Below are positions 4,385-57,100 of a stretch of DNA of 64,000 nucleotides, piece by piece. A program made the position numbers and the translations under genes. The notes under the pieces were generated by a model. It made no database searches, was not told where the DNA came from, and saw only the letters and a program-made list of their open reading frames with translations. How positions within the stretch are numbered: the first letter of the stretch is position 1; every line of letters begins with the position of its first letter. This stretch comes from Phoronis australis (taxonomy: Eukaryota > Animalia > Phoronida): positions 62,001 through 126,000 of the forward strand of contig NMRA01000450.1 of NCBI GenBank assembly GCA_002633005.1. Reading direction: 5' to 3'.

Positions 4385-5102
4385 GAATCGCATAACCGGA
4401 GCTTACAGGGGATCCAATAGTGTTAAGGTTTTAAATAGTCTCAAGTGGCCCAAACTGTCTACTCGACGCAATCTTCACATGATCACATTTACTTTTAAAG
4501 TAATAAACAACGTCAACAACATTTCTGTCCAAAATATTTGATCTATACACTAGACAAGGCCATGGTAATGATTTGAGATCCTCCACCCCATATGCAATTC
4601 CTACGTCATTCAGTCAGACATTCAGAAGGTTTACAGTCATGATGTGCATCAACATCTGGAATTCTCTTCCAGTCTCTGTTAAGGAAAGCAACTCTTTTAC
4701 GAGTATAAAATTAATTTTAGAACTGTTTTTCACAATTTTGATAACTCAGCACCCTTAACTCAATTCTCCCTTCCCTGCGATAACGAAATAGCATTGTACA
4801 GATCGAGTTGTGGTCTTTTCCTCAATTCTGACACGCTTAGGCATAACTTAAGTAATGTTTCTCCAAACTGTAAATGTGGTGACCATCAATCTTATCCTCA
4901 TATTTTCTTCAAATGTCCCCTGAGAGACTCACTCTGTCGTGCACTCAATGAAAACCAGTCAATTGTTAATGTTCACAATTCTTGTAATAATACCCCTACT
5001 AAAGTTACATTATTATTGAATGGTAGTCCTAACTTTGACGTCGTTCTCAATGAATTCCTCCTAAGCAACGTTAGCAAATTTTTATGTACCGTTTATCAAT
5101 AG
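4385..5102 (+). mobile_element. Decayed 3' end of LINE ORF2 (CR1/L2-group-like)
   Basis: Broken-frame peptides LNSLKWPKLSTRRNLH, INIWNSLPVSVKESNS and a C-terminal SPNCKCGDHQSYPHIFFKCP zinc-knuckle motif. Confidence 0.7.
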
Positions 5103-20519: not shown

Positions 20520-21140
20520 CTAACGGTAAAGGGTCGTTACCGAAAAGCGGCGGCAGGCTGTGCGGTGAAGCGGGTGGTAGCGGTCCAAGTCCGGTGGCGG
20601 AGACGGCAGCAGGTTGAGGCGCCGGTGCAGGGGCGGTGGTAGATGGAGAACATAGCGGAGGGGGGATTGGGTGGAGTGGAAGTAGGTGAAATTGTGGATA
20701 ATGCGGGTGTAAGCGTGAATGGTAGCGGGTGCGAGGGATGAGGAGAGGAGGTGGTCTAGAATGTGAGGAGGGCTGGAGGGATGGGGGTAGGGAACCGGTC
20801 GAGCCACAGAGCCATGGAGAAGGCGTCCTGAAATTGAAAACGAGAGAGCCTATCAGCGACAAAGTTGGAGGAACCGGGAACATGTTTTGCACGAACAAAG
20901 ATGTTGAGGCGAAGACAGGAGACTACGAGACGGCGAACAAGACTCATAATGTCCCTGTTGACCGATGAAGATTTGTTAATAATCTCGACCACGGCGGAGT
21001 TGTCGCACATGAAAAGGAGGCAGTGATTGGAGAGCTTGTGACCCCAAATCTCAATGGAGAGGACGATTGGGAAGAGTTTTTTGAAAGTGATGTGGAAGTC
21101 AGAGGTAGACGGGGGCCAGTAGCCCGAGAACCAGTGGGAG
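20520..21140 (-). mobile_element. DIRS/Ngaro-type tyrosine-recombinase retrotransposon fragment (RNase H plus start of recombinase ORF)
   Basis: HITFKKLFPIVLSIEIWG...CDNSAVVEIINK...AKHVPGSSNFVADRLSR is a DIRS RNase H. An overlapping frame gives LSSSLAPATIHAY, typical of the recombinase N-terminal region. Confidence 0.8.
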
Positions 21141-21914
21141 CTGAGGATGGCAGCAGTTGGCTCTTTGGTGTACCCACGTGGTACTTCATATGATATTTGC
21201 CCATTTGGCAGTTTGTACCCACTTGGTACTAATTGTTATGGATTTTGCCGTTTTGCTCGACCCAGTTGGTAGGCAATCAGCCAATACGCATTTGGTATTA
21301 TGTACCTATTTGGTACTATGCTAACCTGTACCACTTAGTATCCGATACTCAATTACACTTTGGGTATCGGAAATGTGTGTGTTATCTCTTGTAATTAAGG
21401 AACCCATCTGGTCCTTTTCACCTCATCTCGGTCTATTCCATTATTCCCTTGTATAGGACTACACGTCGTTTTTCCAGCCTTCGCATTGGTCTGCTGTTAT
21501 CACGTGCCTCGAGTTTGGTCACCTCTTGGCTTTTATAGGCTAATGATTGTCACGTGTCTTTAGGGGTATTTTTCTTTGTTATTGTAACCTCGTTTTCAGT
21601 TCACTTTGTTCCGGACACATTGTTGTACGTCAAAAACTCATTCATAATTTTGCGCCTACAACTTATTCACTTTCGCCTTCCTCTTCAACTTTTCTCGCTT
21701 CCTTTCTCCTGCACCATCAAGCCCCTCACGGTAAGCTCTTTTTTTCTTGTTCTCACCGATGCCTATTCATTGTGCTTGTCTTGTTTCGTCCTACGTTCCT
21801 ACGTCCGGCGGGACCATTTTGCCTAATCTCCCCCGAAACATTTTACTCTTGGGTTCGATCTCCTCCATGTCCCGTCTCATTTCCTCTCCCTCCTCGTTTT
21901 CTTGTACACATGTG

Positions 21915-22243: not shown

Positions 22244-23209
22244 ACAGTACACACCATGGATATTTGCACATTTCGAATTACCGGTGGCCACAGACTAAAT
22301 GTATGACGTAAAATTTAGCCAAAATTAATCTATGATTATTTTGTGTCATTAGCTCGAAGATTTCATTGCTCTTTCAATTTTGCCAATTTTCACATTTCCC
22401 GCCATGTGACATCATGGGTTGAACACAAGAGCTCAGCGACTAGCATTGAACAACGGCGGAGAGTAGGGAATTTGAAAGCGACAACGATTATGAGCAAGAA
22501 ATGAACAAATACTATGAAGAAACGTACGAGAATGGTTGCCAGGATGACGAAATGGGGTTGCACGAAAGCGAGAACGAGTTTGATATGTTTACAGCTGCGT
22601 ACTTTTCTATTTGGAGGCCTTAGGAACTGGATCCTCCCGCGAGAGAAGCAGCCTCGGGCTCGGCCAGTCAACCCAGTCATCCAACAGACGATCCTGAATA
22701 AAAAGCCGATGTTTCTGAATAGTAAATATTGTCCTTTATTGAACCAGGCCTTCATCGTAACATCTCCTCTGATTGGAGTCGAAACGCGACTCCTCAAAGT
22801 AGGCAGAACACAGAGTGGCTCCGGACGGAATCGCTTGGTCCACGCTGAGGTCCCACACTCTCGTTCGGCGCACGAAGCGATGCCACTACTGCGCAACATT
22901 GGCGTCCTTTGGAACACGAAGACGTTCTCCGTCTGACTGCTGTTGCTGCAGCCTCCGCAAACACATCTTTTCATCCCTCTACGAACCTTCTCGACGCTAA
23001 ATATACTTTACTTTCACTTCACTCTATACACTTAGTTGCTGATCCGAACAGTGTGCCGAACGACTTGGGTTCAACCCATGACGTTGTACATAATTTTTTT
23101 TTTCAATTTTTACGTGTTTCTTTATGAGCTGTACACTAAAGGCACTGAAATAAAGTAAGACATAATAATAAAATTTATTTTGAGGTACTAGAGTCATGTT
23201 GCGTACTCT
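22244..23209 (-). mobile_element. Internally deleted Kolobok-type element with THAP remnant
   Basis: TTAA flanks; ends ACAGTACACACCATG / CATGTTGCGTACTCT; inverted subterminal CATGGGTTGAACACAAG / CTTGGGTTCAACCCATG. THAP MKRCVCGGCSN...F-PKD...WHRFVRRTR...LCSAYF (frameshifted) from 22974. Confidence 0.7.
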
Positions 23210-25039: not shown

Positions 25040-27387
25040 TTTAAAAACTTTGATGACCAGGCCTTCAAATCGGATCTTGCTCTTGCTCCCTGGTCTGTCA
25101 TCGAAGCCTATGATGACATGGATGATGCTCTTGATGCGTGGTACAAGTTATTTAACAGTATTTTAGACAAACATGCTCCATGGAAAACTAGACGTGTGAA
25201 GAGATTACGTCAGCCTGAATGGTTCAGTGATGACATTTTTAAAGCTGTAAAGCTCAGGGACAGTTTACGTAAGTGCGGAGGGTTACAAATAAGAGCGAAA
25301 TCGTATTGTAACAATGATTAAAAAGGCTAAGAGTGACTATTACTCTTCACTGATCAGTAGTAATCTCAAAAATTCCAAAGTGTTATGGAAAGTCATCAGA
25401 CAAGTTGCTCCTAAAGAAAAATCCTCATCGCCTTCCATGTTAAAGATTGATGAGGAGTGTGTTCATGATAAATTTCAGATTGCCAATAGTTTTAACAATT
25501 TTTTACTGACATAGCTAGCAAACTTACTCGTGATCTTAAAGATACACACGCCACTCATAAAGATTTTATTGACTTTGTTAGTTCCAGAGTTGAAAGTGAC
25601 ATTGGTTATGATATTCCTCTGGTAAATATGGAATTTGTAAATAAGTTCTTAAATGGTTTTAATCTTAATAAAGCCACTGGAATGGATGATGTCATCTCCA
25701 AAGTTTTAAAACTAGGTCATGAGGAGCTGACACCATTCATCATCTATGTTTTAAACCATAGCATTAAAGCTTCCAAGTTTCCTAGTTTGTGGAAACTTGC
25801 AAAAGTATCCCCTTTACACAAAGGCGGTGCTACTGACAATGTAAACAATTACAAACCAATTTCAATTTTACCGGTCTTGTCTAAATTGTTGGAAAAGTAT
25901 ATTCACAATACCTGTCATTTATTTTTGACTGAGCATGATTGAGTAGTTGCATCTCAGACCGGTTTCAAAAGTGACCTCTCCTGTGAAACTTCCCTCATTA
26001 ATATTGTTAACGGCTGGGCTCAGGGTGTAGATAGTGGTCACAACGTTGGTGTAGTATTTTTGGATTTAAAAAAAAGCTTTTGATCTCGTTGATCACAATA
26101 TACTTCTAAGCAAATTGTTAATTTATAAGGTGGGCAAGGTCTCCCTAGACTGATTTAAATTATATCTCTCCGAGAAGTGCCAGCTTGTATCCCTTGATGG
26201 ACATCTGTCTGAGTTCCGAGGTATCACACACGGTGTTCCCCAGGGATTCATCCTGGGACCTCTGCTGTTTTTACTTTTTATAGTCTACGAAAACACGGTT
26301 GACATGTATGCAGATGATACTACTTTGTCTGTCGTGGCAAACTCGCTGATCTCTGTAAAGGACAGACTGGATAAGGTTGCTACCTGGTGTACTGATAATA
26401 AAATGGTAATTAATGCTGAAAAAACAAAATGTACGAGTATTGCCACTGAGCAACGGCATAGTAGAAGTAATCTTGAGCTTAACATTGCTATTTCCAATGT
26501 ACGCCTCAAATATGTTGACAGTGAAAAGTTATTAGGTGTTACTGTATACAAGACTCTCAGCTGGTCTAGCCATATAAATGGGACTGTGTCCAAAATTAGG
26601 AAGCGCCGTGGTCTTCTCCGGCGTATATCACCATTTCTTCCCACAGAAGAGCATCTGCAATATTTCAGCGCTTGTGTATTCCCTCTGTTCGTTATTGTAG
26701 TACAGTGTGGTCAGGATGCAATGCAAAACTAGTTTCCTCTTTATTGAAGACTCAAAAGCAGGCAGCCAGACTTGTTCTAGGTGTGCCCTTTGACACTCCG
26801 TCAACTCATATGTTTAATAGACTGGGGTGGCTCCCTATTGACAAATATTTTACATATAGGCGTCTGTGTATGATGCATAGGTGCTTTCACGGTAATGTAC
26901 CGACTTATCTATCTCATAATCTCGTACTTATTTGAAATAGCCACCAGATCAGGACAAGATTTTCTGCATCAAACAATTTGGTTTTGCCCAGACACAGAAC
27001 ATCGTTTTAATCTAAGTCCTTCTTTATTCAGACCATCAAACAGTGGAACAATTTGCCTAATAGTCTTAAGGATGCTGATTGTTGTGATAATTTCAGGCAC
27101 CACCTCATCAGTTACCTGTGGTCGTCATAGATGTCCCTCCTTCTTGTCTTTCCAATATATTTATTTATCTTTTATTCAATTTGTTTATCCAATTTGTAAA
27201 TACTATTTTATTTAATGTATCTTATTGTATCTTAATTTAATCTGTTTATCTAACTAAATTTAATTGATTTAATTTCTTGCTGCAGAGGACCATGCTGGAT
27301 ATTAGCCTTTGGCTAAAGCATACTTTGCATTTATTGTGTTTTTATCCTCTTTAAATAAAGTTTATTATTATTGTTATTATTATTATT
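25040..27387 (+). mobile_element. 5'-truncated, decayed CR1/L2-group LINE (reverse transcriptase ORF2)
   Basis: NKATGMD, FPSLWKLAKVSPLHKGG, NYKPISILPVLSKLLEK, FLDLKK.FD, GVPQGFILGPLLF, MYADDTTL, LLGV, LGWLPI; stops and frameshifts; 3' AATAAA plus (TTA)n tail. Confidence 0.92.
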
Positions 27388-32660: not shown

Positions 32661-33712
32661 TCGACCTCACGCGACAATTCTCCTTCACGAGGCTGCACCG
32701 ATGTACCTGACGGGTTATGTTCAATGGGAATAGCAGACGTCGTTACTGGATACTGTATAGCTGAACTGCTTATTGAGGTATCATCACGCGTGGGAGTAGC
32801 CTGAAAAGCAGCCGTGGACAATGCAGTTGAAGCGAAGTTCTCTTCTTGAAAGCCAAAACTTGTATCAAAACCCTCCATTTTAGTTGGCTCAGAATTCTCT
32901 GGCACTGAAGTTTGTTGTGTTATGGGATCAAACTGCTCTTGATAACATAATTCCTCAGTTGAATGTGAAACTGAAATCTCATCAATCATGTCTTTCGGTG
33001 TCCCCCCAAAGTCGACCTCACGCAGTAATTGTCCTTCATGAAGCTGCGCCGATGTATCTAGCGGGTTATGTTCAATGGGAATAGCATACGTCGCTACTGG
33101 ATCTTGTATAGTTGAACTGCTTATTGTGTTATCACCACGTGATCCAATAGCCTGCAAAGCAGTTGTGGACAACGTAGTTGAAGCGAAGTTCTCTTCTTCA
33201 GAAACAGAACTGGTATTAAAACTTTCCATTTTAGTTGGCTAAGAATTCGCTGACACTGATGTTCGTTGTCGTATGGGAGAGGACTTTTTTTGGATAATAT
33301 AATCCCTTAGCTGAATTTGAAACTGAAATCCCATCATTCATGTCTTTCAGTGTCCCCCCAAAATCGATCTTACGCGACAATTCTTCTTCATGAAGTTGCG
33401 TTGATGTACCTAACGGGTTTCGTTCATGGGGAATAACAGAAGTTGCTGCTGCATTTTGTGTACTTGAACTGATTATTGAGGTATCACCACGTGATCGAGT
33501 ACCCTGCGAAGCAGACTTGGACAATGTAGTTGAAGCGACGTTGGCTTCTTGAAAGGCAGAACTGTTATCAAAACGTTCCATTTTAGTTGGCTGAGAATTC
33601 GCTGACACATATTCGTTGTCGTATGGGAGCAAACTTTTCTCGATAACATAATCCCTCAGTTGAATGTGAAATTGAAATCCCATCAAGCATTTCTTTAAGT
33701 GTCTTCCCAAAG
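32661..33712 (-). repeat. Three tandem ~351-nt coding-derived repeats (Ser/Thr/Glu-rich, ~117 aa each), starting inside the C-terminus of the GTPase fusion gene
   Basis: FGKTLKEMLDGISISHS / FGGTLKDMNDGISVSNS / FGGTPKDMIDEISVSHS and PTKME.F..S....EEN.AST.LS recur with period 351-352 nt. Confidence 0.9.
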
Positions 33713-36700
33713 TGTTTCAGGCGAAGCAGAGCAATTTTGACTTTCCAAATGTCATTTGAAGAAATTTCATGACCCCTGGACATGGCTTCCTTGAAAATCT
33801 GCTTTTCTGCTTCATATTCTCGTTTCAGTGTAAGGAGCCGTTTAACCACATTTTCGTGCACTTCATTTGGGGCCTCTTGTTCATGTCGTATCATTAAGTC
33901 AAGATACTCGCCAGTGGCGTCGTTATATGACTTGATTGCATTCTGTTTCAAGAAAGCTCCGTAATGAGCGCTCGCTTTTATTATGGACCTTTCTTCTTCT
34001 TTCAACTCGCGAACAGTATCATCAATGGTTTCCTTCAAACGTTGCTGCTGCTGCGTTTTCGACTCCAGCCTCAAAATTTGACCTTGTACTTCTGGTGAAA
34101 TAAACTCTTTTTCCACCTGATTTACAGTGTATGTTATGTGCATGTGGATCTTGAAATCATGGCCGCACTGATGGCATTGCGTGCCACTAATGCACCAACA
34201 CTGTTGGAGTCGGTAGTCATTTATAGTTTCAGTCGGAACTCCTTCTAAGTAACAGTGATCGTGACATTCCTGTGGATACACTGTCTCCTGTGTGTTTCCT
34301 TCACCAACAGTGACTCTTTTAATACAATTGGAGTGCGCGCAAACAGTTTTGGGATAAGGCAAATTTGTGCGTTCCAAAGTAATTCCTTTAAACCGAAGAG
34401 CTTTTTTTGTCTCAGCCAAACTCTGTCTCTGAAAATTTATAGTCGCATTTGCGTCAGTAGCTCGCTTAATATTAAGCTGTATGACTTTGGCAATTTCCGC
34501 CATTGGCTTAGTCATTGCTACAATGATCTTACGTGACTCGTTGATGCTAATTGTACTTTTGACTTGGTGTGGATCCATGTTCCGAATTTTAAGAAAAAAA
34601 TTCTTCGTTTGTTCTGCCGAATACTGCCAGCTTTCAGCAAAATCACATATTTGTTTTTTCGTGAAGGGTATGTCACTCTGAAGGCACGCAAGAAATCGCA
34701 GTGCATCATTTTCAAAACAAAAGTAATTCATAGAAGAGCACTCAATGCCAAGCGACATTTGCTTTAAAGTGCTATTTAACACTGGTACTGAGTCGCCAGG
34801 AGAAAACCCGGACGCCCGAGAATTGGTGAAACAAAAAACTACATTGTTTTTTGCAGATTTGTGCAGGTTTTTCAAGAGCTCCTGTAAACAATATCGAAAG
34901 GGCACTGTGACTCGTGAGTTGTTTGATTTCAGCAAAATACAAACCGCGTGTATTTCGTCATAAAACGAAACGTAGGAAAGAATATTTTCCAGGCTTTTTC
35001 TGTCTTCTTCGGGGTTGACACCTACGCCGGGTGTATCTATCAGACGAATCCTCTCTTCACCGGAAAAGAAAACATACGCCATTGTCTCCGTGGTCTCGGG
35101 ATTACCGTCAATTTGGGTGCTCTTGCTTCCAGCCCCAAGTTTGACAGTGACAGACTGACCTCCGACGTGATGCGTAAACTGTGACGGTATCACCGTGTAA
35201 AAGTCCGAGGCATTCATAGCATCTTCTAGGTCATCAAAAGCAAGATAATTAACAATTGCGTTGATCCAAGTTGATTTGCCAACACCAACCTCCCCCAAAA
35301 TTAGGACGTTCTTTTCGGGGTTAGCACGTAATAAATTCAGCTGATCAAAGAGGAAATTGTTAGAATACTTGACATAATCAAAGCCGTGGGATTCCTCGTT
35401 ACATCGAAAAGAGGCATTGGCTGGAGTAGATGACCCACAACTGCAGTGGAACCGTCGTGTTGTTACGCCATACTCCACCACCTCATTGCAAACAGAGCAT
35501 TCCCAAGTGACGGTCTTTCCAGAGCATTGTTTTGGACATTTTAGTTTCACAGCGGCACGTTCTTTAGGCTTTCTATCTCGCTTTACATCATGATGCCTTA
35601 TAAGGCACCTATTCATATTTTTTCCGTCTCTGGTGTACAAATTGTCGCAGGCCATGATTCCGTTTTCGTATAAAACAACCTTGGCTTCTCGTTTTCCCGA
35701 TGTCCACAAATCTGGTGTAATTGCCTCATCAACAACTTTGAAAACCGTATCATTGCGGGTTTTGAACGTACGGTGACAGCGCAAGAAAAAATTCTCTATT
35801 TGTTGTCCTCGTTTTGTATCCTCTCTGGGTTTGTACATAATGTACACGGTAGTTGCGTCATTGGTAGAAAGGCGAGCCTTCTTGCTTGTGTACCTAATGC
35901 CTCTAGCTGTCCACTCCTTAACATGCTGCAAATCTTTTAGATTGACCTGAAACCTTTGAATTTGAGAGTCATACGAAGATACGATAGATGTGAACTCTTT
36001 CACCCATGTTTCGAGAGCTGAACCGTCTTCATTCTGGCGACGTATTTCTGGTACCAGGTCTCTGAGTTTGCATCGAAATGACGATTCGTGCTTTGCGATA
36101 TCTTTTACAGACTGGTCAATGCTTACACTAACGGCTTCTTCAATGTAGTCTCCGAGCATATGCAGATCATTTTGTATGTCGTGAAGTCGTTGCCTTTGCA
36201 TTTTAATTTTCTCAGCCATCTGTACGGTTCTTTTCATTGTGTCTTCTTCAATGGACTTGAAATTAAACTGTACGTCGATCTGTAAGGAGCAAATTTTCAC
36301 CACAGATTGAAGGGGCAATAGCGTAAAGAGCAAAGGGACGCCTTTTCCGCCATTCGTTTGCTGAATACAAACTGGAAACTTTTTGGCATATTCTAAGGCT
36401 TCTTCAAATGTAAGTGTTTTATCTACTGGAAATACGTCCGAAATACACTTAAACGTGAAGCTTGAAGCTTTGTCCGGTCGTGAGTCACTGGAATCGACTG
36501 AGTCACCGGCTTTGAGAAGTTTTCTGAATTTTTCTAACTCTACTCTAAGGTCTTCTTGCACCGCGGTTTTTTCACGATCTTCCGAATTTTCATTTTCACA
36601 AGTTATCGAGCAAACTGCTCCCCATTCAATACCAACAACTACGTGAGTTGCTTCATGGCCAGCACTTTTAATTGCCATGAAAACGTCATTGTTAATATTC

Positions 36701-36984
36701 TTTTTGTGCCGCGTCAGTGAGATTTCGTCTTCTTGTGTTTTAACTTTGTACATTAATGTCAGCCTTTGTGCTCGACCACTCTTCTTTTCATTGTTGATAT
36801 ATGCACCTGACCCATTGAGTTGTACAAATTCAGCCAAAAGACTCATTTGAAGTCCTTCTTCAACGTTGAGGGCACGGAATTTTTCCTCCGTGTTATCAGC
36901 TTGTACAATATTGATCGTTGCCTCTTCATCTTTCATAACGTCAATGCTATCATCATCGAGATCTTGCTTGAACAGAGAATAATT
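33583..36984 (-). CDS. Main exon of a stonustoxin-like MACPF / P-loop GTPase (septin/AIG1-like) fusion protein, ~1162 aa spliced
   Basis: 3402-nt open exon after a T/C-rich tract and CCTCAG acceptor. SNTX-like motifs LNGSGAYIN, LMYKVKT, ATHVVVGIEWGA, GKGVPLLFTLLPL, VVLYENG. GTPase G1 GEVGVGKST (~35272-35295) and G3 LIDTPG (~35030). Two Cys/His clusters and coiled coils. Confidence 0.9.
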   Translation of the reverse strand, partial: NYSLFKQDLDDDSIDVMKDEEATINIVQADNTEEKFRALNVEEGLQMSLLAEFVQLNGSGAYINNEKKSGRAQRLTLMYKVKTQEDEISLTRHKKNINNDVFMAIKSAGHEATHVVVGIEWGAVCSITCENENSEDREKTAVQEDLRVELEKFRKLLKAGDSVDSSDSRPDKASSFTFKCISDVFPVDKTLTFEEALEYAKKFPVCIQQTNGGKGVPLLFTLLPLQSVVKICSLQIDVQFNFKSIEEDTMKRTVQMAEKIKMQRQRLHDIQNDLHMLGDYIEEAVSVSIDQSVKDIAKHESSFRCKLRDLVPEIRRQNEDGSALETWVKEFTSIVSSYDSQIQRFQVNLKDLQHVKEWTARGIRYTSKKARLSTNDATTVYIMYKPREDTKRGQQIENFFLRCHRTFKTRNDTVFKVVDEAITPDLWTSGKREAKVVLYENGIMACDNLYTRDGKNMNRCLIRHHDVKRDRKPKERAAVKLKCPKQCSGKTVTWECSVCNEVVEYGVTTRRFHCSCGSSTPANASFRCNEESHGFDYVKYSNNFLFDQLNLLRANPEKNVLILGEVGVGKSTWINAIVNYLAFDDLEDAMNASDFYTVIPSQFTHHVGGQSVTVKLGAGSKSTQIDGNPETTETMAYVFFSGEERIRLIDTPGVGVNPEEDRKSLENILSYVSFYDEIHAVCILLKSNNSRVTVPFRYCLQELLKNLHKSAKNNVVFCFTNSRASGFSPGDSVPVLNSTLKQMSLGIECSSMNYFCFENDALRFLACLQSDIPFTKKQICDFAESWQYSAEQTKNFFLKIRNMDPHQVKSTISINESRKIIVAMTKPMAEIAKVIQLNIKRATDANATINFQRQSLAETKKALRFKGITLERTNLPYPKTVCAHSNCIKRVTVGEGNTQETVYPQECHDHCYLEGVPTETINDYRLQQCWCISGTQCHQCGHDFKIHMHITYTVNQVEKEFISPEVQGQILRLESKTQQQQRLKETIDDTVRELKEEERSIIKASAHYGAFLKQNAIKSYNDATGEYLDLMIRHEQEAPNEVHENVVKRLLTLKREYEAEKQIFKEAMSRGHEISSNDIWKVKIALLRLKHFGKTLKEMLDGISISHSTEGLCYREKFAPIRQRICVSEFSAN

Positions 36985-37109
36985 CTGAGGAAAAAAGAAA
37001 TATACAAATTTAGACTCGATCCCATCATGTGATGTGGAACTAATGAAAGTAAATTTTGACCGAGGCCGAAGGTTCATATGATATACACTATTTCATTACA
37101 TGATCAGTG

Positions 37110-37266
37110 CAGTGGCGGATTTAGAGGGGGGCAGGGGGCCATGGCCCCAACTAAAATTCTACTAGATTCCATTTGGCAGTTCGATGGTGTGAACGTCTGA
37201 CGGGCAAAATCCTGGCTAATACTCTGCCCTGCCACCCCCCAACTCAAAATCATGGATCCGCCCCTG
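37110..37266. mobile_element. hAT-like MITE with apparent 5-bp TSD (intronic)
   Basis: TIRs CAGTGGCGGAT / ATCCGCCCCTG; CAGTG lies directly before (37105-37109) and after (37267-37271). Confidence 0.7.
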
Positions 37267-37284
37267 CAGTGATGTCTCTTTTAA

Positions 37285-37645
37285 AAGGATACTAAACTCT
37301 GTTTCGAAGATTTTATATAATGCTCGTTCACTCACTTGTTAGTGCATCAGCGGCGTCAATATTAAACGATGAATGCAGGAATCAACTGAAAACCCATGCT
37401 CCTTACATAACAGATTGAATATTACGGTTCTTGGAGGGTGGTCTTTCTACACAGTTGTCGTGTAATTCGTTAAAAGCGTAGGTCACGCTTGCCCATTTAG
37501 CATATTTTGAAAGGAGTTTTCAAAATTTCAAAGTTTTGACTTTTGAGGGTTCGGTGATTACAGAGCATTATTCTGCATTAGTGAATTGGACGGAAAAGTC
37601 GTTTATTATGTGTGTTGATAGGTCAAAACCCGGTTTGGAATCCTT
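37285..37645. mobile_element. TTAA-flanked MITE (Kolobok-like termini), intronic
   Basis: TTAA-AAGGATACTAAAC ... GTTTGGAATCCTT-TTAA. Confidence 0.6.
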
Positions 37646-38931
37646 TTAAATGATTTTTGTCTCGTATAGGATTGGCGTTTTCTTGCTTGTTTAAATGTAT
37701 TACACCGTCTGGTAACTTCGTTGCCAAGGTTTATGGTTTCTACAGCGTGTTATTTTTAGATTGCAAATGACGACAGTTTTTTCTAAACCCGCACAAAGGC
37801 AACTTAAGCTGAATTTGCATTTCTCGATAAAAAATGCATAACATCTCATGTGACAAAAACGAACAACATGCACATCTACATCTCTGAGACAGATGCGTGA
37901 GAACGCATATTAAAATTATTTTGGCTCTCCTGAGTTGGATCTTGCTTTTGAAAAAAGTGAACAACAAAACAGTCGTCGCGCCACGCACTCGATTTTCAAA
38001 AACAACCTACATGTAGCACAAATTTTGCTTTATGGTCTCATTAACGTCAACTGGCACCTCTGTCCTCTGAACGGCTGTAACTCGGTGTGACATCTTCCGA
38101 TATATCGCAGTATTGACCATCATTTTTCATTCATGTCGCCCGTCAGATGCCGTTGTTCGCGATATGACAAATCAGACGCAGTAGAAACCGTAAACCTGAC
38201 CTTCAAAGGAGCAGACGATGTCAAAACAACAAAGCAGGCAAGAATCTTGTTAGATACGAAAAATGGGACGACAGATACATCAGTGGTCGTGTACCAAAAA
38301 AAAATTAGACCGATATCCCTCGAGTGTATCAGGTCGTATATGCATCGGTACAGGAATGTTGCCCTCGGGCAATATTGCTTTACCTCGACCTCGGTCGCAG
38401 ATGCACCTGCTTTTCGACTGCCGTATTTGCCTCTCGGCTGGTACACAGTGTAAGGAGTCAAAAACAGTTCATACAGTTGACACGATAAACGATGCAATAA
38501 AAATGTCTAATAGCAGTAAAGAAATTATGAGGAAGCATTTTGTTCAATAATTGTCATTTTAAAAGCCTTGCGTTCATATTTTTGTCACTTCAGCTTCAGT
38601 TTTAAAATAATTTAAATGGGTAAATTGATTAATCGCTTATATCAATTATCAACGTCGTAAATTACTAACCAGCATCATATACACAAACAAGAAAATTAGA
38701 TACTAATGAATGTACGGCTTCATTTATGCTTTTGAATTATCAATTTACACCGTCAAAGTTAGGCAAATATACGTAAAGGGATAAAAACAAATTCAACAGA
38801 ATTTTTTGTATTTTATAAATCGAAATGAATCCTGATCTTTGATCCGGATACAAAATCCTGTGGAACGCGTGGCCTTGCATTCCCCAGCAACAAGTGCGAT
38901 AATCTCGGAACTGCGATAACATGTGCAACAA

Positions 38932-39330
38932 CACTCTTCCACAGTGCTACGAAAAGTAGCACTGTGGAATGTTGTTTATAATGGCTTCCCATTGGTTAAA
39001 GTAATGAAACCGACACCATAACCTTCAGCCATTCCCAGTGGTTGAAATCTGGGAAACCCCTTTCAGTTTACTGTTACGTAATATGGCGACCACCTTTGAC
39101 TTGAATAGTTGCAATTTGTTAAAACGGGCAGAGATCGAAGTAAACAAAATCAAGGAAACCCTACTCCGTGGCTAAGCCCAAACAAGTACAGTACCTAGAA
39201 GGCGTGTGCAAGTAGTGGCGATGTGATCGATAAATTTCCGACCAAGCATGCGCATTGATGCCCACACAGGAAATTCAGTGTGGCGTTTATCATGTTTCCA
39301 CAGGGTCACTTTTCAGAATAGGTGGCGCTG
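38932..39330. repeat. Interspersed repeat family with copies at ~53438-53635 (direct, internally deleted) and ~61050-61412 (inverted)
   Basis: Shared blocks ATGGCTTCYCATTRGTTAAAG, TTGAAATCTGGGAAACC, TTCCGACCAAGCATG, ATCATGTTTCCACAGRGYCACTTTTCA. Confidence 0.75.
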
Positions 39331-39414
39331 GGTCAGAGGGTAAGGTGCAACCAGCAACAATGAATTCCGTGTCCATCGTTCTATATGCAGTCGTCGATCC
39401 AAATGAATGCCTAC

Positions 39415-39501
39415 CGTGAATGTATCTGACGTGGCGTTATACAATGCTCCTATTTTACCAGATCTTCCAACTGCTGCTCGGCTTATTGATGCCCTCAGCA
39501 T
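39415..39501 (-). CDS. First recognisable coding exon of the MACPF-GTPase fusion gene
   Basis: MLRASISRAAVGRSGKIGALYNATSDTFT resembles the stonustoxin-family N-terminal (AL)GR...LG.LYD...D motif. Phase-0 GTAGGC donor matches the phase-0 acceptor at 36984. An acceptor TAG at 39526-39528 implies a further upstream exon. Confidence 0.8.
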
Positions 39502-40388
39502 GTTGGTAACTGTCGTTTCCCGTCGCTACAAATGTAGACAACATAACAGTGTGACAATCGCACAAACAAGGCACAAGCGATGTATGACATGAGTTTTCTG
39601 TCGGAATGTACTGGCGTTTATGTGTTGAAAAGTCAGTATGGGTATGAGTTATTGGGTTGTTTTTCAGGACTTTATGTATGAACAGTGATGGTGTAACAGT
39701 TGATCAGTTATTGCACCGGGTGTGTAGGCACGACATAGTCCAAAAGTGTCCATATGTTAACTAATCGGAACAATATCATGATAACCAGAACATTATGGAG
39801 TTAAAAACGTAATTAGGAAAATAATAGAATGTCTCGTCTCAAAAAGGAGTGATCCTTCACATATGTTTTATTCGAAGCACATGCGCACTAGACATCATTA
39901 CGGTCTGTGAAACAACAATGTCTGTCAGTGGTCGTCCAATGGGATTTCGCTAGATTTGTTTCCTCTCTACGGTCTCTGGCCATACCACCCGCTGGTTCCA
40001 TGCGTGTCCGCTGGGGTAAAGGTACACGCAGGTATCATTCACTACCACGCGTTTTATTACTCGTTGATGTAACCTTGGCAGTCATTGGTTAGCTTTATAA
40101 CAAATAAAAATGACGAACTGTGAACAAAAGTCAGCGACAGTAGCAAAATGCACATCGAAAAGGTACAGCCACAACTTTCCAATTCACATTTCTTGAACAT
40201 ATCCCTATAGGACTGTCCCGTATTACACAGCAACACTTGAATCTTGCTGAATTTACCCACAATGCCGTAAGCCTTCGTCAAGCACATTTGCTGCATCGTG
40301 TCCGTGGCCGACTAGAATTTCATATGTCATTTGTTGTTGTCTGATTTGTTAGTTTTTTCTCGCTTACATTACTCCATTCGTTCTTCCA

Positions 40389-41741: not shown

Positions 41742-43418
41742 ATGGGTTTTTACGGCACCTGCAATCTCACGCTCAAATAAAAATGACAAAAAATCCACCG
41801 GGCGCTTGGAGTGTTACGTCTCCCGTTCGACAAAAAAGTGCGTTTTGGCTTAGACCCAGATGTCCCGCTTTTTATTACGAAATCTAGCTTTTCAATCCAG
41901 TTGTCCTGCTCTTTATTCTCGAATGTTGACTGCAGCTACTATGCAACAAGAGGTCTAAATAACATCACCTCTTTGTCATGAATTTCGTAATTTCCCAGAG
42001 TTACATAGCAATCGTACAAATGTGTTCCAATATCTCTTGTTTACGGTAACGTGAACTACATGTATCAGCATCAATTATTTTTACTTTCAGAAGGAACAAG
42101 ACAGTTTATTTCTAAACTTTTATGGAAAGTCCTACGCTGCAAAAATGTAATAAGCAATCCACAACATATGCCAAAGCAACGTAACAGATGTTTGACTTTT
42201 TTATCACTCAGAAAACCTTCATATGCAAATTTCGGATAGGCACATGCAGTTGGAGTAATTAGTCTAGAAAAGCAAATAGTTACGACTACAGTGAAAAAGA
42301 GTGACTAGAATTTTCTACTCACACAAGCTTCCTTCTTTTACGACATACCTTACAGAAAAGAACTTTGGATGCAGCTGTCTCCGTCTATGCGATGTCTGAT
42401 ATGAATGTGTCGCTATTGCGTGACTCGATCGTTGTCTGTGGCAAGCAACTTGAAACTTGATAGGCATCAGAAATGAGCCAATTCTTCCTATTGACGTGTC
42501 ATTTCCGACTTTCCTGTAACATATTCCGTTCTCAAATTACTCTAAAACAACTGCCAAAGTAGCGGACATTGGAACTTATATCAGACCGGCGTAAAATTAC
42601 TCACCCCTCCCTCCCCTGTGCTTAAGTGTCCAGCCTCCAACTACTGGAATTACGGGCCCGTACGTATGGGAACCCCACACATGCAAAAATGACAGTAAGG
42701 CTGAAAGACTATGTCTTGTAATCTAACCCAAAATGAAGATGATAACAGTGTAGCTACAGCTCTTAGTAAACGGAAGTAACTATGCTAATATCGAACATGT
42801 CCTATCTCTCGCAAGTGGAAACTGTGCGTAGCCACTATTATACGTCTCCAACAGATGTAGAATTAAGCGTATTCATCGTTATTGACAACGTGAAACCCAA
42901 TTTTGTTGATACAGAACAAAGTTAATGCGCGGGTCGTGGATACATCTCATGGGTGCAGTCAGGAAATGCCAAACAAGCTAACAATCAAGTGCCAGCAGCA
43001 CCTAAATTCAGCAATGTGCAAGCGTTAAGAAGGTTGTGCGATGCATTTGGGACTCCTGTGATGCATGTTAAAGACATACAAAAAACAAACGAGGAAAGGT
43101 GCCAGTTTCTGATAGAAGCACTTCACGATCAGAATTCGCATGGATAAACCATTGACAATTATTCAAGTGTCCGATGGATAAAAAAACATAAAAGCGCTAT
43201 AGAATAAAAGCATTGCAGAAATAAATTTCTAATGCCAGGTAATTGTTACCACTCAGAACCACGTGATCACGAAAATGATGACATCATTGACATGAGGAAG
43301 ATGGCTGAGCCAGAATGTCAAACTGAGATTAATCTTTTTACTAGAGTAATACCTGTAATACCTGCCACGGACAGGATCATCGGGCATATGCTGGTGCATT
43401 AATACATTCCCCAGACCA

Positions 43419-45309
43419 TCACCGTGACAGCAGAAGGCTCAGAACTCCAGGGCTGACGTTGCCTGTAAGTATCTGATTTGACAACACTCTGGCACGGCTC
43501 TTCTTGTGACTCTTAGCAGCATGGACATAAATAATACCGGCTTCGAGCAGTCGGCTACCATCATTGAACTCAGCCAGTTGGGATAAAGTCTGCTCGAGGG
43601 AGTGTTTGTGGGCCAGCAGCTTCACATCAGCCGAATATAAGACGAGGGGCTGGTTGGTGGTGCATGAGCTATTGAGGTAATCTGCACGCTCATTAATCAA
43701 GACACCGGCGTGGCCAGGTACGAAAGATCAGATCACTATATGATGAGAGTGGCGTGATCGGAAGACACCCCAGTTGGCTGGGAGGTTTCCAGATTGACCT
43801 TTCATCAACACTGCCATGGAGTCGATGGTAAAGATAATGGTGTGATTTTCCTGGTCTAGGAGTGACAACTTAGTTAGGGCACGTTGTATAGCCTCAAACT
43901 CCGCCCGCGTACATGGTGGCAGCCACTGCCCTCCGCAATGACGTTGTTAGCACAGAGTATTTGATGACCCCATATCGCACGATTAGTTTTACCACCAAAG
44001 GATCCATCTGTTGCTACAATGGTGGCATTAATACCGCCAAGATCATGCCATTGCTGACAGCACAATGCTTTGGCTACTCCAGGAGGCCATTCCCGAGCTT
44101 CCTTGTTGAAAGCAATGGTAACATTCGGTTTCTCACCGAGTTCTTGTACTGGCAGCCAAGCAGCATCTTGCGCGATCGTGTGTTCGCCGATGAGACCCAT
44201 GGTTGCGTTTGCAGCAGCGACAGTCCACGAGCACCTGAGAGGCATTGCGGAAAGGTCTAGAGCGAAGTCGATAAGCTTCTGTTGCAGGGACAGGGTTCAA
44301 GCACCTGTCAAGTGCAGTCTTCACTTGACTGCGTAACAGATGGAAGGGGCTTTGAACAGCCTTAGCTACAGTAATATCTTGTACAAGAGATTGTCTGTCT
44401 GCAATGCTGGGAACACCGACAAGGTAGCTTAATGCTGTGACTGACGTAGATCTCGTACATGACGCGAAAACCAAGGTTTTGGAGTCTCTCAAGCCTGTTG
44501 ATTTGATTTTTAATGATGTTGATCATGGGTAGAGCGCAGTCGAAGACCGGAGTGACGAGGGCTTTATAAAGCATGACGAGGTGCCTTTCTTCCGCCTTCC
44601 GACCGGCCGCATCCCTAAGGGCATTGATTCCTTTGTTAGCACAGCTGATCACACTGTTAACTTGAGTTGTTAAGTTGAGCCGGCGGTCGAGTTCTACACC
44701 CAAGTGACACATCTGGTCAGATGTTGCAATCCTCTTCCCATCGTAAGTAGGACAAGGGAATTCATCGACACTGAGGCGATTGTCCAGAGTACAGAAGAGA
44801 GGTTCACATTTGTCTTCATCGCAGTTCATTCCGCTGGTAGCACAATACTCGCAGATTTCCATCAAGGTAGACTGTGCTTTGTGGAGAATCTCCTGATGCG
44901 TTTGTCCTTGCGATGACAGCAGCATGTCGTCTGCAAAGGTGCAAAGTCGGCAGTCGGCGCTGTTCAGTCTGGTGAGTGCGAGGGTGTAGATATTGAACAG
45001 CACTGGGGACAGAGGTGAACCTTAGGGTAAGCCTGTGTTGACAGATGCCCATTTTGAACCCCATGTGCGACGTTTTAGCACGCATCTCCGGCTGTTGAGG
45101 GCACTCATCACCCATCTAATGCACCGTACAGGAATATTGAGATGAAGCATGCCATCCACAAGTTTTGGAAGCTGAAAAGACTTGTACGCATTTTCTAGAT
45201 CAAGGTCAACGAGGAGAGTGTTTTCTGTTTTCAAAACGTTGCCATATCTCATCTGCAATAGACGCTGCATTGGCCCATGAATCTCTACCAGGTCGATAGA
45301 GATGGACAT
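43419..45309 (-). mobile_element. Decayed RNase-H-containing LINE (I-group-like), RT plus RNase H
   Basis: DLDLENAY, GLP*GSPLSPVLFNIYT, TFADDMLL, HLGVELDRRL, LYKALV.P.FD, then RNase H VATDGS, IDSMAVL, VPGHAGVLINERADYL. Confidence 0.88.
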
Positions 45310-50960: not shown

Positions 50961-52454
50961 CAAAGTGAAAAGCAATCCTGCTGCAATAACCTGAGAGAAT
51001 TGAACCTAATTCAGAAAGTCAGCCCTTGATATGCCCGATTATGGATTCCGTTGCATTGGGAAAATTACAATTGTTTTTTTTTAAATGATGGATAATCTGT
51101 CTGTTGTTTAACAGTAATTACAAATCGTGAGGCACCATAAAGATGCACTTTTTTCAAAAAATGGCTGTCGTTTGAATTTATAAACGACTTGCAACATTTC
51201 AAGGCTATCCAGTCATTGAGAATTCAAAAAGTTTAATATATTTTTATGGGTTTACAATGGATAGCAAAACAGTTTCATGAAATAAACTTGAAGGAACTTC
51301 GTGAAGGTTAAGAATTACCTCACCATTCTCTTTCCCCCAGATACTATTACCTGTTATTTCCAGACATTCAGTTGCACCAAATTTTACAACCCCAACCCGC
51401 TATGCCAACCCCCCGCTAAGGACCTGAATAAGTAAATTAAGAAAACGAGTTACATATTGAAAAATACATGTAGCTGTACTTTTTCAAAGGCATTGTTCGT
51501 TGTCTCTGATGTATAGAAAGTAGGCTTTGACAACAGATTTGCACTGGATGGGAAAATCTTGCTGGTTAGCTGCTATCAACTGCTTCAAACCAATGTTTGT
51601 CCATTCAGGGGCGGTGCAGAAGCGATGCATATCTCCTCTGCACGGTACAAGCTAACAAACCTAAAAACCAAAGGTCACGTGGAAACTGACATGATAGATT
51701 TCCATTTCAACGTGTAATAGATTTCCGGAAGACATTTGCCATTGGGCTTGGTTGTAATTTAACGCACCAACCAATATCGAGTTGACAGCATGAACATTCA
51801 GCATTGATTGATGTAACTGTCACCGATAAACCTGTTAGAAATCAATCCAAACATTTGTAATACTGCTTTGATGTACGAAAAGATCCCGAGTGCTACGTCA
51901 AGTATCGTAACACACATCACAACAAAGATTAACCCGACTGTCGCGAAGTCGACATCGGCGAGTACCTCAGTTAACAGGTATCAGTAGAATAAACATGGAA
52001 TAATCGTAAAAACAATCACAAACCCCACCTTTGCATAAGGTCGTGCTTACTTCCTCTCATAGAAGAACCCTTTTCACGCAATCTCAGATTCAGTTGGCAC
52101 AGCTGCAAACCATTTCACCATGTATTTAAAGGGCTCTCGAAATCGAGGCTGCTTAATGTATCACCTCTAGTACACGCGCTCCCTCTTGTAAATGTGAATT
52201 TTCCAAATAGCCCCAATGCTTATTTAAGCATGATAACACTCTGTGGGCATAGGCGGATTTAGGGGGGCAGGGGGCCCAACCCCCCCCCCCTTGGCTGCCG
52301 CAAAACAATAAAACAGCAAGAGCGTAGGGAAATGTTGGGTTTATCAATTAACCCCGGTAATTAAAATTATACGGCTGAAACAAGATTTAAATGTGTGCAG
52401 TCTTAGTGTTTGGGGGGATCAGATCCAATTTCAAGTGTCAAATTCGGAACACGG

Positions 52455-54110: not shown

Positions 54111-57100
54111 ACACTTAAATCGCGTCTCTACTGCTGAGGCTATCTTCACATTGTTGCAGTCCATGTAACAAAACTGTTACGTACATGTACAGTGTAAGCA
54201 AAGAATGCACGTTTGCGTTCGCGTTTAACGTGTAGCCGAAGCTCTTTGTTGAACAAAAGCAACCCAGAGCGAAGATATTCGCCCATCGTCCGCAATATAT
54301 ACAGAAATGAGGAACGTAAATATTTCCGCGGTATGTCAGATGCATCCAAAATAATTCAGCATCACTTATGCAAGCTCGCCTCATCAGTAGAGTAGGGCGC
54401 AGGATTGTACCAAATTATTAGGTTCGTAGCCCCCCCGGGGGATTTGATCGAACCCCCAACGAGGAAGAGGTCCAGCCCTAGCCTATCCGATAGGATAAGG
54501 TATTATTTAGATGCACAACAAAATTGTTGTAGCTGCTAGTTCTACTAACCACAATCACGAGCAAGTTAATAATAATTTTGAATTTGCTTCCGATGTAAAG
54601 CGCTTCACATAAACATCGGGTCGTATCCGGCCTGATCGGTGACTACGTTGATGGGCGATTAGACTGAGAAGGCTTTATGTTATTCATCGGCATTGAAAGC
54701 GGGTGATCTCTACACCATACAGAAACACGGGAGTCTAGAAGTAAATGTCTATGCCTGGCACAAACTACCGGATATATAGCATTGAGAGAGCTCCCCAAAG
54801 TAGTGCGGTGTGAATGCCTTAAAATCGAACAAGAAACAAAAGAGCAGAAGATGGATTTGTTATTTGCTACTTCGGTGTACTTTCTAGCATAGTATGGATA
54901 AAGTGCAAGCATCTTCAAATTTCAAATTGAAAGTGATCGTCAAATATCTTGTTCATCAAGTGTACACTTTAATTGTGGATTGGTAAATTGACAGGCACGC
55001 GTTTATACACGTGTGTGCGTTTCCGTTCTTTTAAATTCAGTACACGCCGACGGTAAGTTCACTGACTACTGTGTCGTTTCTCAAAAATCAGACATTTATC
55101 TACCGCGTTTTCTTGCACTGAAAAATCCCCGAATGTTCATATTATTAGGTAAGTCTAGACCTAATTAAAACTTTGGTCAATGAAGAAAGTCTTCTCTTGT
55201 AAATCAATGTCAATGGTGCACAGCCTCGCAAATTTTTTACCAGCAACAATCTTGATGGAAAAGATTTCCAAGGTTACTTGTCCGAAGGTTCACTACTCCG
55301 AATGTTCGCTACCTTCGAAAGTTCACTACTTCGAATGTCCAAAATTCCGAAACTCGGACTGCGACAGTTCATTACTCTGATTTTCTACTAATGATTCGGA
55401 ACTGACATGAAAAAAGTATTAGTTTGTGTCCTTTTAGTAACCATTTAAATGGTGTGCAATTGTTCAATAGTCCCAAAAATTTACTTCCGAAATGTAGCTG
55501 TCAATGTCTGTTGTCATCTATGAAAGCCGATCATAACATCTTACTCGAAGACGTATGGTCGTGGTCATTCACTTCAGAATAGGATGGGACTTACCTTGTA
55601 CGTGAGATATAGAGGGTTTGTGGCTGTCGTGTGAAGAGGCACAGGGTTATCGCCGGCGCCCAAGTAGATTGACCATTTCATTCACTTCAAAGGGGGAGAA
55701 AAACATTCAATGAATCATTAGTATGATCAGGAAAATCATCCGCAATCTAAGTAAAAATGGAATGATACAAGTGAAAATGAATGGAACATGGAAAAGCCCG
55801 AAAGAATGATGCTCCTGTTCGATTCTTTATTATAAGGAAATGGCCACCAACTACGTGACCAAAGGAAAGGGAGAGTAGAATTTAGGGAATTTTTTATTCT
55901 AATTAATACAAAGTTTATAAGCCCTTTACGCCATACATTGAAGGTGCAACCACTGCTCACGGGCAAACAATTGGACGTTGTTAATTTGCGATTCTTGATC
56001 ATTCCGCGGTTGTTCAAACAGGCCTTATGTGGTTAAATTTTGCTGGTAAACTACTGTAGCACCATTTACATGCTTGGTGGTATTCAGAATTGATGAACTG
56101 TAGGTCTTATGGTCATGAGATTGACTGCTACCTTCCTTGTACGATTGGTAAGAAAATGTGGAAGACATTTTTGACAGAAGACGAGCTAATCGTAAGTTAC
56201 AGTTAGAAAATGTACGATAGTAAAACTGTTGTATTAATAATTTGCGCACTTTTAAATTGCAACATTTAAAAAATTAGAGCTTTATTTTGATATAAGCTTA
56301 CAACATATTTTAAATGATATTGAAACATATTATAAATATTTGCTTTGATTTGTCATGTACATGCAGAAGACTTAGTGCTACAATTTATTATGTATAACAG
56401 ACTCTCGTTTCGTGGCACGATGCGATGCTGCTAATTTTTGGCAAAAATCAAACGCCATAGGGACTTGATTTCTAACTTGATTTGCGCAATATTATGTTGA
56501 CCTATAAAAGTGTACTGGTTGATGCTGGCACTAGTCATCTTTGCTCAATTATTTGCAAGCTCAAACTCTTATAAAACTGTTGGCTTTATAAGGTAATCCC
56601 ACCCGCCATTATAAACAAAGATACTGGTAACTATAAAATCTTTGTTATAAAGGAAACAACAATGCTAGATGTGAATCTCCTTCAACATTAGTGACAAATA
56701 AACACCTAGTTCTTGGTGTATTCGGACCATATTTTTCCTCTTCTTTTTAAAGAAAACCACGTACATCTTGAGGGTATGCAATTTTTATGTATGGCTACTA
56801 TTCACCAATGCTGCTTATTCGAATGTTTGCAAATAAACGTCTCCGGGAAGCCTTTTAAGGCTCGTGTAAACCGGTTAGGAGTCCGTCCGATTTGTCAAAA
56901 ACAACGACCATTTCGATGACGACATTGTTACCTGCTGAACAGTCTAACTATTATGCTTAGAATTAGGTGAAACCGTTACCTGGGGTAAATTACGTACTGA
57001 ATTTGATAGTAATCGTTGTGCTCGATGGAAGTTGAGTAAAATCCGCAGTATAACCTAGGAATAGGTCTATCTATCAGTGTTGTGTCTGAAACTGAGTGTA

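Follow-up and report, generated by a model that had tools for sequence, protein, structure and literature searches.

A MACPF-GTPase fusion gene in Phoronis australis, a divergent member of a putative family of GTP-gated intracellular pore formers

Introduction

What does a perforin-type domain do in the same chain as a GTPase? The question is raised by a gene on the minus strand of the window analyzed here, a stretch of 64,000 nucleotides from Phoronis australis (contig NMRA01000450.1, positions 62,001 to 126,000), whose product joins a stonustoxin-type MACPF module to a GTPase; all coordinates below are those of this window. We tentatively propose, short of even confidence, that the protein is a divergent member of an unstudied MACPF-GTPase family, that the family acts as GTP-gated intracellular pore-forming effectors of immunity, and that the Phoronis copy is a modified subunit or regulator. 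To judge from sequence, the family members are likely to be cytosolic GTP-gated pore formers, and the Phoronis copy may be a modified partner and not the killer itself.

An intact two-exon gene

The coding part consists of two exons of 29 and 1133 codons, which together specify a protein of 1162 aa. The start ATG at 39501 matches the N-termini of the homologs and the stop lies at 33583. The second exon (33583-36984, 1133 codons plus the stop) forms a stop-free run expected by chance with a probability of about 10^-33 at the local base composition, while the first, taken alone, matches positions 2-24 of the Pfam profile MACPF_SNTX (E 0.014). The exact joint of the intervening GT..AG intron (36985-39414, phase 0) is present in a contig of sequencing run X1, so that the reading frame and the splice joint confirm the intact protein of about 1162 aa, encoded by a 29-codon exon and a 3.4-kb exon, that a preliminary description of this DNA had proposed. 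Residue numbers in this text follow the second exon (residue 1 is the codon at 36984); those of the full protein are higher by 29.

Run X1 is not on record as RNA and its nature is our guess: introns are covered too, at lower depth, and we take it as RNA because of four canonical GT-AG joints, which beyond the coding intron are 39525/42349, 42512/55594 and the alternative 42512/51350. The exon 42349-42512 carries in-frame stops; the upstream exons are therefore 5' untranslated region (UTR), with translation from 39501, and a longer N-terminus by way of these exons, which we considered, is ruled out by the same stops. The transcription unit thus extends past the two coding exons into 5' untranslated exons. 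In X1 one contig extends from residue 328 as far as the stop, and another covers residues 1-305 together with the upstream exon. A transcript spanning both halves of the protein is accordingly seen in part: the thioredoxin-like domain and the GTPase are linked in a single contig, and none of the X1 contigs leads from the MACPF core to the GTPase, the 67-nt gap falling within one exon. Mis-joined exons or an artefact as the source of the fusion are ruled out, as both halves lie within one exon and the fusion is conserved in homologs.

A stonustoxin-type N-terminal half

The domain order is MACPF, helical bundle, thioredoxin-like domain, Cys/His-rich domain 1, G domain, stalk helix, Cys/His-rich domain 2 and returning helices (Table 1). 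The N-terminal ~480 aa match the MACPF, helical and thioredoxin-like domains of stonustoxin in the same order. MACPF_SNTX (PF24674) scores 42.2 bits against a Pfam cut-off of 27 (E 7e-11); the sole matches among solved sequences are stonustoxin alpha and beta (PDB 4WVM; E 5e-17 and 2e-16), and a profile from 110 family members reaches E 4e-51 against residues 6-415 of SNTX. For an AlphaFold2 model of the protein (mean pLDDT 86 and pTM 0.57, hence uncertain domain packing), the top Foldseek match is stonustoxin 4WVM, followed by GIMAP7, and VIA-align superposes model residues 16-453 on SNTX-beta 46-506 with Z 17.0 (root-mean-square deviation (rmsd) 5.0, 363 aligned). The assignment of the N-terminus to the stonustoxin type in the preliminary description is therefore upheld both by sequence and by predicted fold. 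All the motifs quoted there, of the stonustoxin family and of the GTPase alike, are found in the protein, with one correction: the first, which reads GRSGKIGALYNATSD, has three residues between R and I, not two.

The modelled MACPF core has strands at 14-27, 73-88, 114-131 and 176-182 with helices between them, among which both helix clusters expected of the transmembrane hairpins (TMH) are present, TMH1 at about residues 28-72 and TMH2 at about 132-175. The MACPF signature has been given as Y-X6-[FY]-G-T-H-[FY] (PMC7593815); the corresponding region here reads ATHVV, as it does in the SNTX chains, and T113, H114 and G122 are found in 109-110 of the 110 aligned family rows. Across the family TMH1 shows a clear alternation of hydrophobic and polar residues, and this alternation and the hinge glycines are kept from fungi to animals. 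PF21109 matches homologs in the region of the helical bundle. DUF7656 is called in homologs at the thioredoxin-like domain, where Pfam does not detect it in the Phoronis copy. PRY-SPRY gave no Pfam match at E<=1, its region being taken by a Cys-rich domain and the GTPase; without PRY-SPRY, the protein is not a stonustoxin proper.

A paraseptin-type GTPase between two Cys/His-rich domains

By VIA-align the G domain is nearest to Toc34 (Z 18.0, rmsd 2.9-3.4, ~205-210 aligned) and GIMAP7 (Z 16.0), ahead of septins (~14). The earlier reading as a TRAFAC GTPase related to septins and GIMAPs thus stands, with Toc34 and GIMAP as the closest structures. Pfam assigns generic GTPase profiles to it; AIG1 reaches 23.6 bits, below the cut-off of 27 that some relatives clear, and the Pfam Septin profile gives no match, in line with a septin structural Z about 4 units under that of Toc34. 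Being below the AIG1 cut-off, the Phoronis protein is not a GIMAP proper; it combines modules of SNTX and GIMAP. The residues K570, S571, T572, T631, D650 and G653 (G1, switch-I Thr and DxxG) are invariant in the family and kept in the Phoronis copy, and R691, within the loop that follows strand 4, is shared by 107 of 110 rows. A beta-hairpin is inserted between G1 and switch I. Family-wide, G4 reads FTNxR and lacks the usual Asp; an acidic pair after strand 6 is conserved, which by analogy with Toc34 may specify guanine.

The preliminary description had assigned a GTPase and coiled coils to the C-terminal half. Both are there, and two Cys/His-rich domains had been overlooked. The first is likely, from its conserved ligands, to bind zinc. 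The second, for which PF26633 is precomputed in homologs, sits at the tip of the stalk and is a candidate sensor. A separate model of residues 812-1110 (pLDDT 87, pTM 0.85) is a hairpin of helices that carries the Cys-rich part as an insertion at the tip; searched whole, it gave no Foldseek match at E<=0.001, and its best VIA-align matches (Z 6.9) are generic helical hairpins. Scans with NCBIfam and PADLOC returned weak P-loop matches only. No transmembrane anchor is evident in the protein.

A large and apparently undescribed family

A first search returned 270 proteins at E<=1e-10, and of the 120 listed, 113 align over more than half of the MACPF region and likewise of the G region. The homologs share the whole architecture at 27-47% identity along the full length, and the GTPase half is the best conserved part. 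Named sources include Dendronephthya, Patiria, Holothuria, Amphiura, Lytechinus, Strigamia, nematodes, a tardigrade, Glomeromycota and many ascomycetes. Atlas clusters that carry this Pfam set are most frequent in Rotifera. The fusion is therefore common to octocorals, echinoderms, nematodes and fungi, which answers the call for a survey of the architecture across taxa and agrees with the expectation that uncharacterized fusion relatives would be found in databases. Among representatives at 50% identity, 963 matched at E<=1e-30; the 150 matches listed include 136 that are new, 88 of them with both halves and 45 with the G domain and no MACPF, some possibly fragments. Close paralogs are common in the family, and fungi have intron-free members.

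The GTPase module also occurs with other partners: a CARD in one of 20 proteins scanned, and a kinase in one of 11. Among 31 chosen proteins, one combines it with FYVE and a kinase, and in another, which bears a MACPF domain, a galectin is inserted; in several proteins the G domain is matched twice. The variants P0229, P0190, P0335, P0049, P0222, P0224 and P0234 have a galectin insert, a CARD, FYVE plus kinase, an N-terminal kinase or a second G-domain match. Neither viral contigs nor plasmids yielded confirmed relatives. Actinobacterial matches (L002-L005) were set aside as weak (26-27%, G domain only), L002 being read as a dynamin-like gene.

The component domains are already in Pfam (PF24674, PF24676 and PF26633), and database entries are named uncharacterized or 'G domain-containing protein', some having been auto-named neoverrucotoxin. 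We found no paper on a MACPF_SNTX plus GTPase architecture in a literature search that covers subscription journals poorly, and a query with Pfam and PANTHER identifiers gave zero matches. Ellisdon et al. (2015) are said to have described SNTX-like domains across eukaryotes with a possible immune role, and may mention GTPase fusions. The family is large and apparently undescribed, though its architecture already sits in databases.

Full-length cyanobacterial members are probable, to judge from the sequences. A contig of a Nostocales metagenome-assembled genome holds the GTPase half among cyanobacterial genes; the full-length protein P0033 was matched in 3 of 389 genomes of a cyanobacterial family (a GTPase half, a 491-aa MACPF half and a fragment) and in 2 of 401 genomes of an order sample; and its 90% cluster includes a 242-aa protein of Dolichospermum planctonicum. 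In both half-trees the full-length metagenomic proteins join the genomic cyanobacterial halves with an SH-aLRT support of 100. The full-length gene was seen in no assembled cyanobacterial genome. PF24674 was not found in 401 sampled cyanobacterial genomes, a scan in which no control gave a signal either. One metagenome scan gave nothing and a second 13 loci, mostly fungal or otherwise eukaryotic-looking, with one cyanobacterium-like GTPase half; neither supplied a contig context for the full-length gene.

Some cyanobacterial loci deserve separate mention. In a Nostocaceae genome (G476, L023:9240-10715) a stand-alone 491-aa gene for MACPF, helical and DUF7656 domains lies between unrelated genes and is either a natural half-protein or a truncation. 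At two cyanobacterial or cyanobacterium-like loci (L001:4422-7845 and L013:1323-5159) the GTPase half stands directly behind a related gene with no Pfam or NCBIfam match, of ~430 aa in L013 and broken up in L001; in L007 a distant relative of the GTPase (912 aa) carries a region of similar appearance, and a 749-aa HTH/NTPase-like gene lies upstream in L001. It is possible that the gene pairs of L001 and L013 constitute a bacterial conflict system.

The trees, quick LG+G4 runs on 90 and 46 selected rows with no reliable root, are patchy and do not follow species relationships, a discord that would fit transfer or old paralogy, and for which we claim no direction. The Phoronis protein forms a long branch adjoining the Dendronephthya group. 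P0194, a GTPase-half protein of Gregarina, nests within an ascomycete clade, through either transfer or contamination.

Departures of the Phoronis copy

The Phoronis copy departs from the family at 10 of 71 near-invariant G-domain columns, where the family median is 0 and the next most divergent row has 4. None of the 29 invariant positions of the Cys-rich and C-terminal domains is changed, and all Cys/His ligands are kept. No other of the 110 rows lacks, as the Phoronis copy does, both the P-loop Thr pattern and the Asp that stands three residues beyond DTPG, and switch II of this copy has a two-residue gap. The X1 allele has no listed difference at the altered switch and P-loop sites, so these are not sequencing errors. 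In a wider set, 120 of 133 G domains fit the strict switch-II pattern; DTPGFGD of the yeast septin Cdc10 aligns with the family DTPGIGD, weakly (E 0.6). In predicted TMH1, Glu residues stand at 43 and 52, which are lipid-face or tip positions, the lipid faces being assigned from the family profile itself. No charge is found on the TMH1 lipid face in 85 of 109 homologs, one in 23 and two in 1, as compared with two charged residues on each assigned lipid face of the Phoronis copy; for TMH2 this lies within the family spread. The tail after G1093 is 40 residues long (median 69; 5 of 104 are as short), and a helical hydrophobic moment above that of shuffles, found for 87 of 104 relatives' tails, is not found for that of the Phoronis copy.

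Five of 21 allele changes, all five non-synonymous, fall within 27 codons of the Cys-rich tip (34200-34285; p 0.016 with the window picked afterwards, 0.13 for 50 codons), a lead and not evidence. The Cys-rich tip domain is among the more variable in several close paralog pairs.

Proposed mechanism

The monomer would be cytosolic, as no signal peptide is evident by eye. We envisage that the Cys-rich tip and the thioredoxin-like domain recognize a pathogen or a damaged membrane, aided in most relatives by the amphipathic C-terminal tail. The GTP-bound G domains would then pair head to head, as reported for Toc34, GIMAPs and septins (PMC5084822, PMC10996617), dimerization would place the edges of neighboring MACPF sheets side by side to give a prepore, and a beta-barrel would form by the unfurling of TMH1 and TMH2, as is described for MACPF hairpins once oligomerized (PMC7593815). 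Nucleotide binding is probably retained in the Phoronis copy, because G1 Lys-Ser-Thr, the switch-I Thr, DxxG and the Arg after strand 4 are kept. In septins the G interface includes the P-loop, switch I and switch II with a paired Asx (PMC8640212); with its altered P-loop and switches and its TMH1 glutamates, the Phoronis copy may therefore hydrolyze, pair or insert differently, for example as a hetero-oligomer partner of putative canonical paralogs or as a brake on them. Paraseptins have arginine fingers whose loss after duplication has been tied to hetero-oligomers (PMC10996617). The GTP-switched, membrane-perforating effector of the preliminary description is thus plausible, from sequence, for the family and weakened for the Phoronis copy, in which the P-loop, both switches and the TMH1 lipid face are altered and the tail is short; this copy may not best represent the family.

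It is conceivable, though we hold the idea loosely, that the family is an undescribed cross-kingdom class of immune effectors, each a single chain with a dimerizing paraseptin GTPase as the gate of an intracellular perforin-type pore. Such a class would extend over invertebrates, fungi and filamentous cyanobacteria, probably in part through horizontal gene transfer, with the GTPase swapped onto CARD, kinase or lectin partners and with switch-altered paralogs such as the Phoronis copy serving as hetero-oligomer partners or brakes. SNTX-like genes have a proposed role in fish defense and have moved horizontally between fishes (PMC12107551).

Several points weigh against the proposal of a modified partner within a family of GTP-gated pore formers. 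The mechanism is inferred, for any family member, from sequence and models. The family-wide lack of Asp in G4 makes GTP specificity less certain, a sequence search gave no Toc34 or GIMAP alignment around R691 to establish it residue by residue as an arginine finger, and TMH2 alternates more weakly than TMH1 and is variable and gappy across the family. As to the Phoronis copy, 13 of the 133 G domains of the wider set also fail the strict switch-II pattern, although most of those listed keep the Asp. Its two halves are both fast (branch lengths 0.63 and 0.74), and the G-domain changes, weakly enriched by Fisher test (p 0.03 relative to the Cys-rich and C-terminal domains, 0.09 with MACPF), may belong to a general acceleration. 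The X1 allele, which could instead be a very close paralog, differs at 24 non-synonymous and 9 synonymous sites, two near-end differences being unlisted, and neutrality is not rejected (p 0.26, pN/pS ~0.7). The raw runs X2-X4, of each of which about a fifth was read, gave an exon depth of <=2.3 and zero junction reads. There is no second gene copy in the 64-kb window.

Alternative explanations

The Phoronis copy might itself be a fully active GTP-switched pore former or cell-death executor, its substitutions merely retuning kinetics or targets. The retained core G motifs and conserved Arg would agree with this, as would MACPF core residues that are kept or conservatively changed, a mean TMH hydrophobicity inside the family range, and a reading frame that is spliced and intact in two alleles. 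We nevertheless consider it unlikely, in view of a switch-II and P-loop loss unique among 110 rows, two Glu on the TMH1 lipid face, and a short tail with no excess hydrophobic moment.

It is improbable, too, that the family comprises membrane-coating or remodelling GTPases of the GBP/IRG/dynamin type, with MACPF as an assembly scaffold and no lytic pores. The GTPase-stalk-tip layout is clear in the models, conservation is strongest in the GTPase half, MACPF is absent from 45 of 133 G-domain proteins (some are perhaps fragments) and TMH2 is variable, all as such a coat would have it; but the TMH1 alternation and hinge glycines are kept from fungi to animals, the nearest solved relative is a lytic pore former, and the MACPF half stands alone in a Nostocaceae genome.

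A paralog under relaxed selection, heading for loss and with no distinct function, would account for the long branches, an allelic pN/pS of ~0.7 indistinguishable from neutral, the rearranged 3' end and the very low depth in the three RNA runs X2-X4. We regard this as rather improbable: after ~0.6-0.7 substitutions per site the gene has no stop or frameshift, every Cys/His ligand is kept, diversity is lower at non-synonymous sites than in the adjacent intron (p 0.01), and X1 contigs show the transcript spliced at good depth.

A secreted venom or defensive toxin like stonustoxin is very improbable, since the SNTX homology and the SNTX-like transcripts reported as candidate toxins in nemerteans and myxozoans (PMC4986456, PMC8083181) are countered by a GTPase and probable zinc domains that would point to the cytosol, by the missing Pfam match to PRY-SPRY and by the same architecture being common in fungi.

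If true, GTP gating of a perforin would add a novel way in which invertebrates and fungi carry out cell-autonomous killing or regulated cell death, and would tie GIMAP-type GTPases, of whose effector output little is known, directly to pore formation. To our knowledge, the MACPF pores described so far are under the control of partner subunits, receptors, pH or proteolysis, and no GTPase in the chain itself is known to control one. The family also suggests that stonustoxin arose from intracellular immune proteins by a swap of the C-terminal half. Intron-free fungal members, putative cyanobacterial members and natural half-proteins should ease testing of the family.

Surrounding DNA

The 3' end of the reading frame falls inside a 352-bp unit present in three copies (Table 1). 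The extra units translate to look-alikes of the last ~45 residues, with open frames of 161 and 214 codons; X1 contigs cover 32661-33711 at high depth, so that the region may be a long 3' UTR. In all four runs most reads fall on a short repeated element of the coding intron (37106-37270), which shows joints between its arms and resembles a small inverted-repeat mobile element. Elsewhere, fragmentary frames at 25496-26732, 44362-45021, 4683-5102 and 20756-21235 resemble reverse transcriptases or retroelements by eye, and a minus-strand frame at 22390-23007 with a C-x-C-x-x-C start resembles, also by eye, a THAP zinc finger.

Table 1. Coordinates of the gene, its domains and the adjoining repeat within the window
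Feature	Position	Strand	Evidence
Upstream 5' UTR exon	55594..55900	-	Donor ~55594, 5' end provisional; X1 joint 42512/55594, GT..AG, depth 87
Alternative upstream 5' UTR exon	51350..51376	-	Donor side only; X1 joint 42512/51350, depth 15
5' UTR exon, ~164 nt, in-frame stops	42349..42512	-	X1 contig joins to next exon; translation
First coding exon: 24 nt UTR, ATG, 29 codons, MACPF start	39415..39525	-	X1 joints; Pfam
Intron, 2430 nt, phase-0 GT..AG	36985..39414	-	X1 contig joint
Stonustoxin-type MACPF/CDC, residues 1-235	36280..36984	-	PF24674; 4WVM; model core sheet
Helical (FAT-like) bundle, residues 236-360	35905..36279	-	Model helices; family profile aligns through to SNTX
Thioredoxin-like domain, residues 361-456	35617..35904	-	VIA alignment to SNTX-beta
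Cys/His-rich domain 1, residues 457-550	35335..35616	-	7 Cys and 1 His at 109-110/110 rows
Paraseptin-type (Toc34/GIMAP-like) G domain, residues 551-815	34540..35334	-	Pfam; Foldseek; VIA
Outgoing stalk helix, residues 816-865	34390..34539	-	Models
Cys/His-rich domain 2 (DUF8206 region), residues 866-960, stalk tip	34105..34389	-	Invariant Cys/His; model; Atlas
Returning stalk and C-terminal helices, residues 961-1133, short tail, stop	33583..34104	-	Models
352-bp unit, three copies, ~80% identity	32661..33711	.	Last ~45 codons and downstream sequence

Relation to known systems

SNTX is described as an alpha/beta toxin of ~700 aa and four domains (PMC10566576). Stonustoxin alpha/beta (4WVM) and SNTX-like fish proteins share with the Phoronis protein the order of MACPF, helical (FAT) and thioredoxin domains; in place of PRY-SPRY the latter continues for ~680 aa with a Cys-rich domain, the GTPase, the stalk and the other Cys-rich domain. 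Toc34/Toc33 and GIMAP/AIG1 are the best structural matches of the G domain and may have the conserved Arg after strand 4 in common with it, whereas the Phoronis G domain is fused to MACPF and two Cys-rich domains, has FTNxR as its G4 and carries the hairpin insert between G1 and switch I. The database family of MACPF_SNTX, DUF7656, G domain and DUF8206 has the same architecture; the Phoronis copy is set apart from it by its switch residues, its TMH1 and its tail. Chordate proteins with an AIG1/septin-type GTPase and stonustoxin helical, thioredoxin and FN3 domains likewise pair a paraseptin-type GTPase with SNTX domains, but they carry FN3 and have no DUF8206 listed (Atlas clusters, scores 0.81-0.84, leads only). 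As a working analogy we look to GBP/IRG plus gasdermin and to NLRs with their effector-NTPase-sensor layout, in which an NTPase switch controls an intracellular membrane-damaging effector. Those systems use separate proteins or STAND ATPases and other pore folds, whereas the Phoronis protein holds MACPF and a TRAFAC GTPase in one chain.

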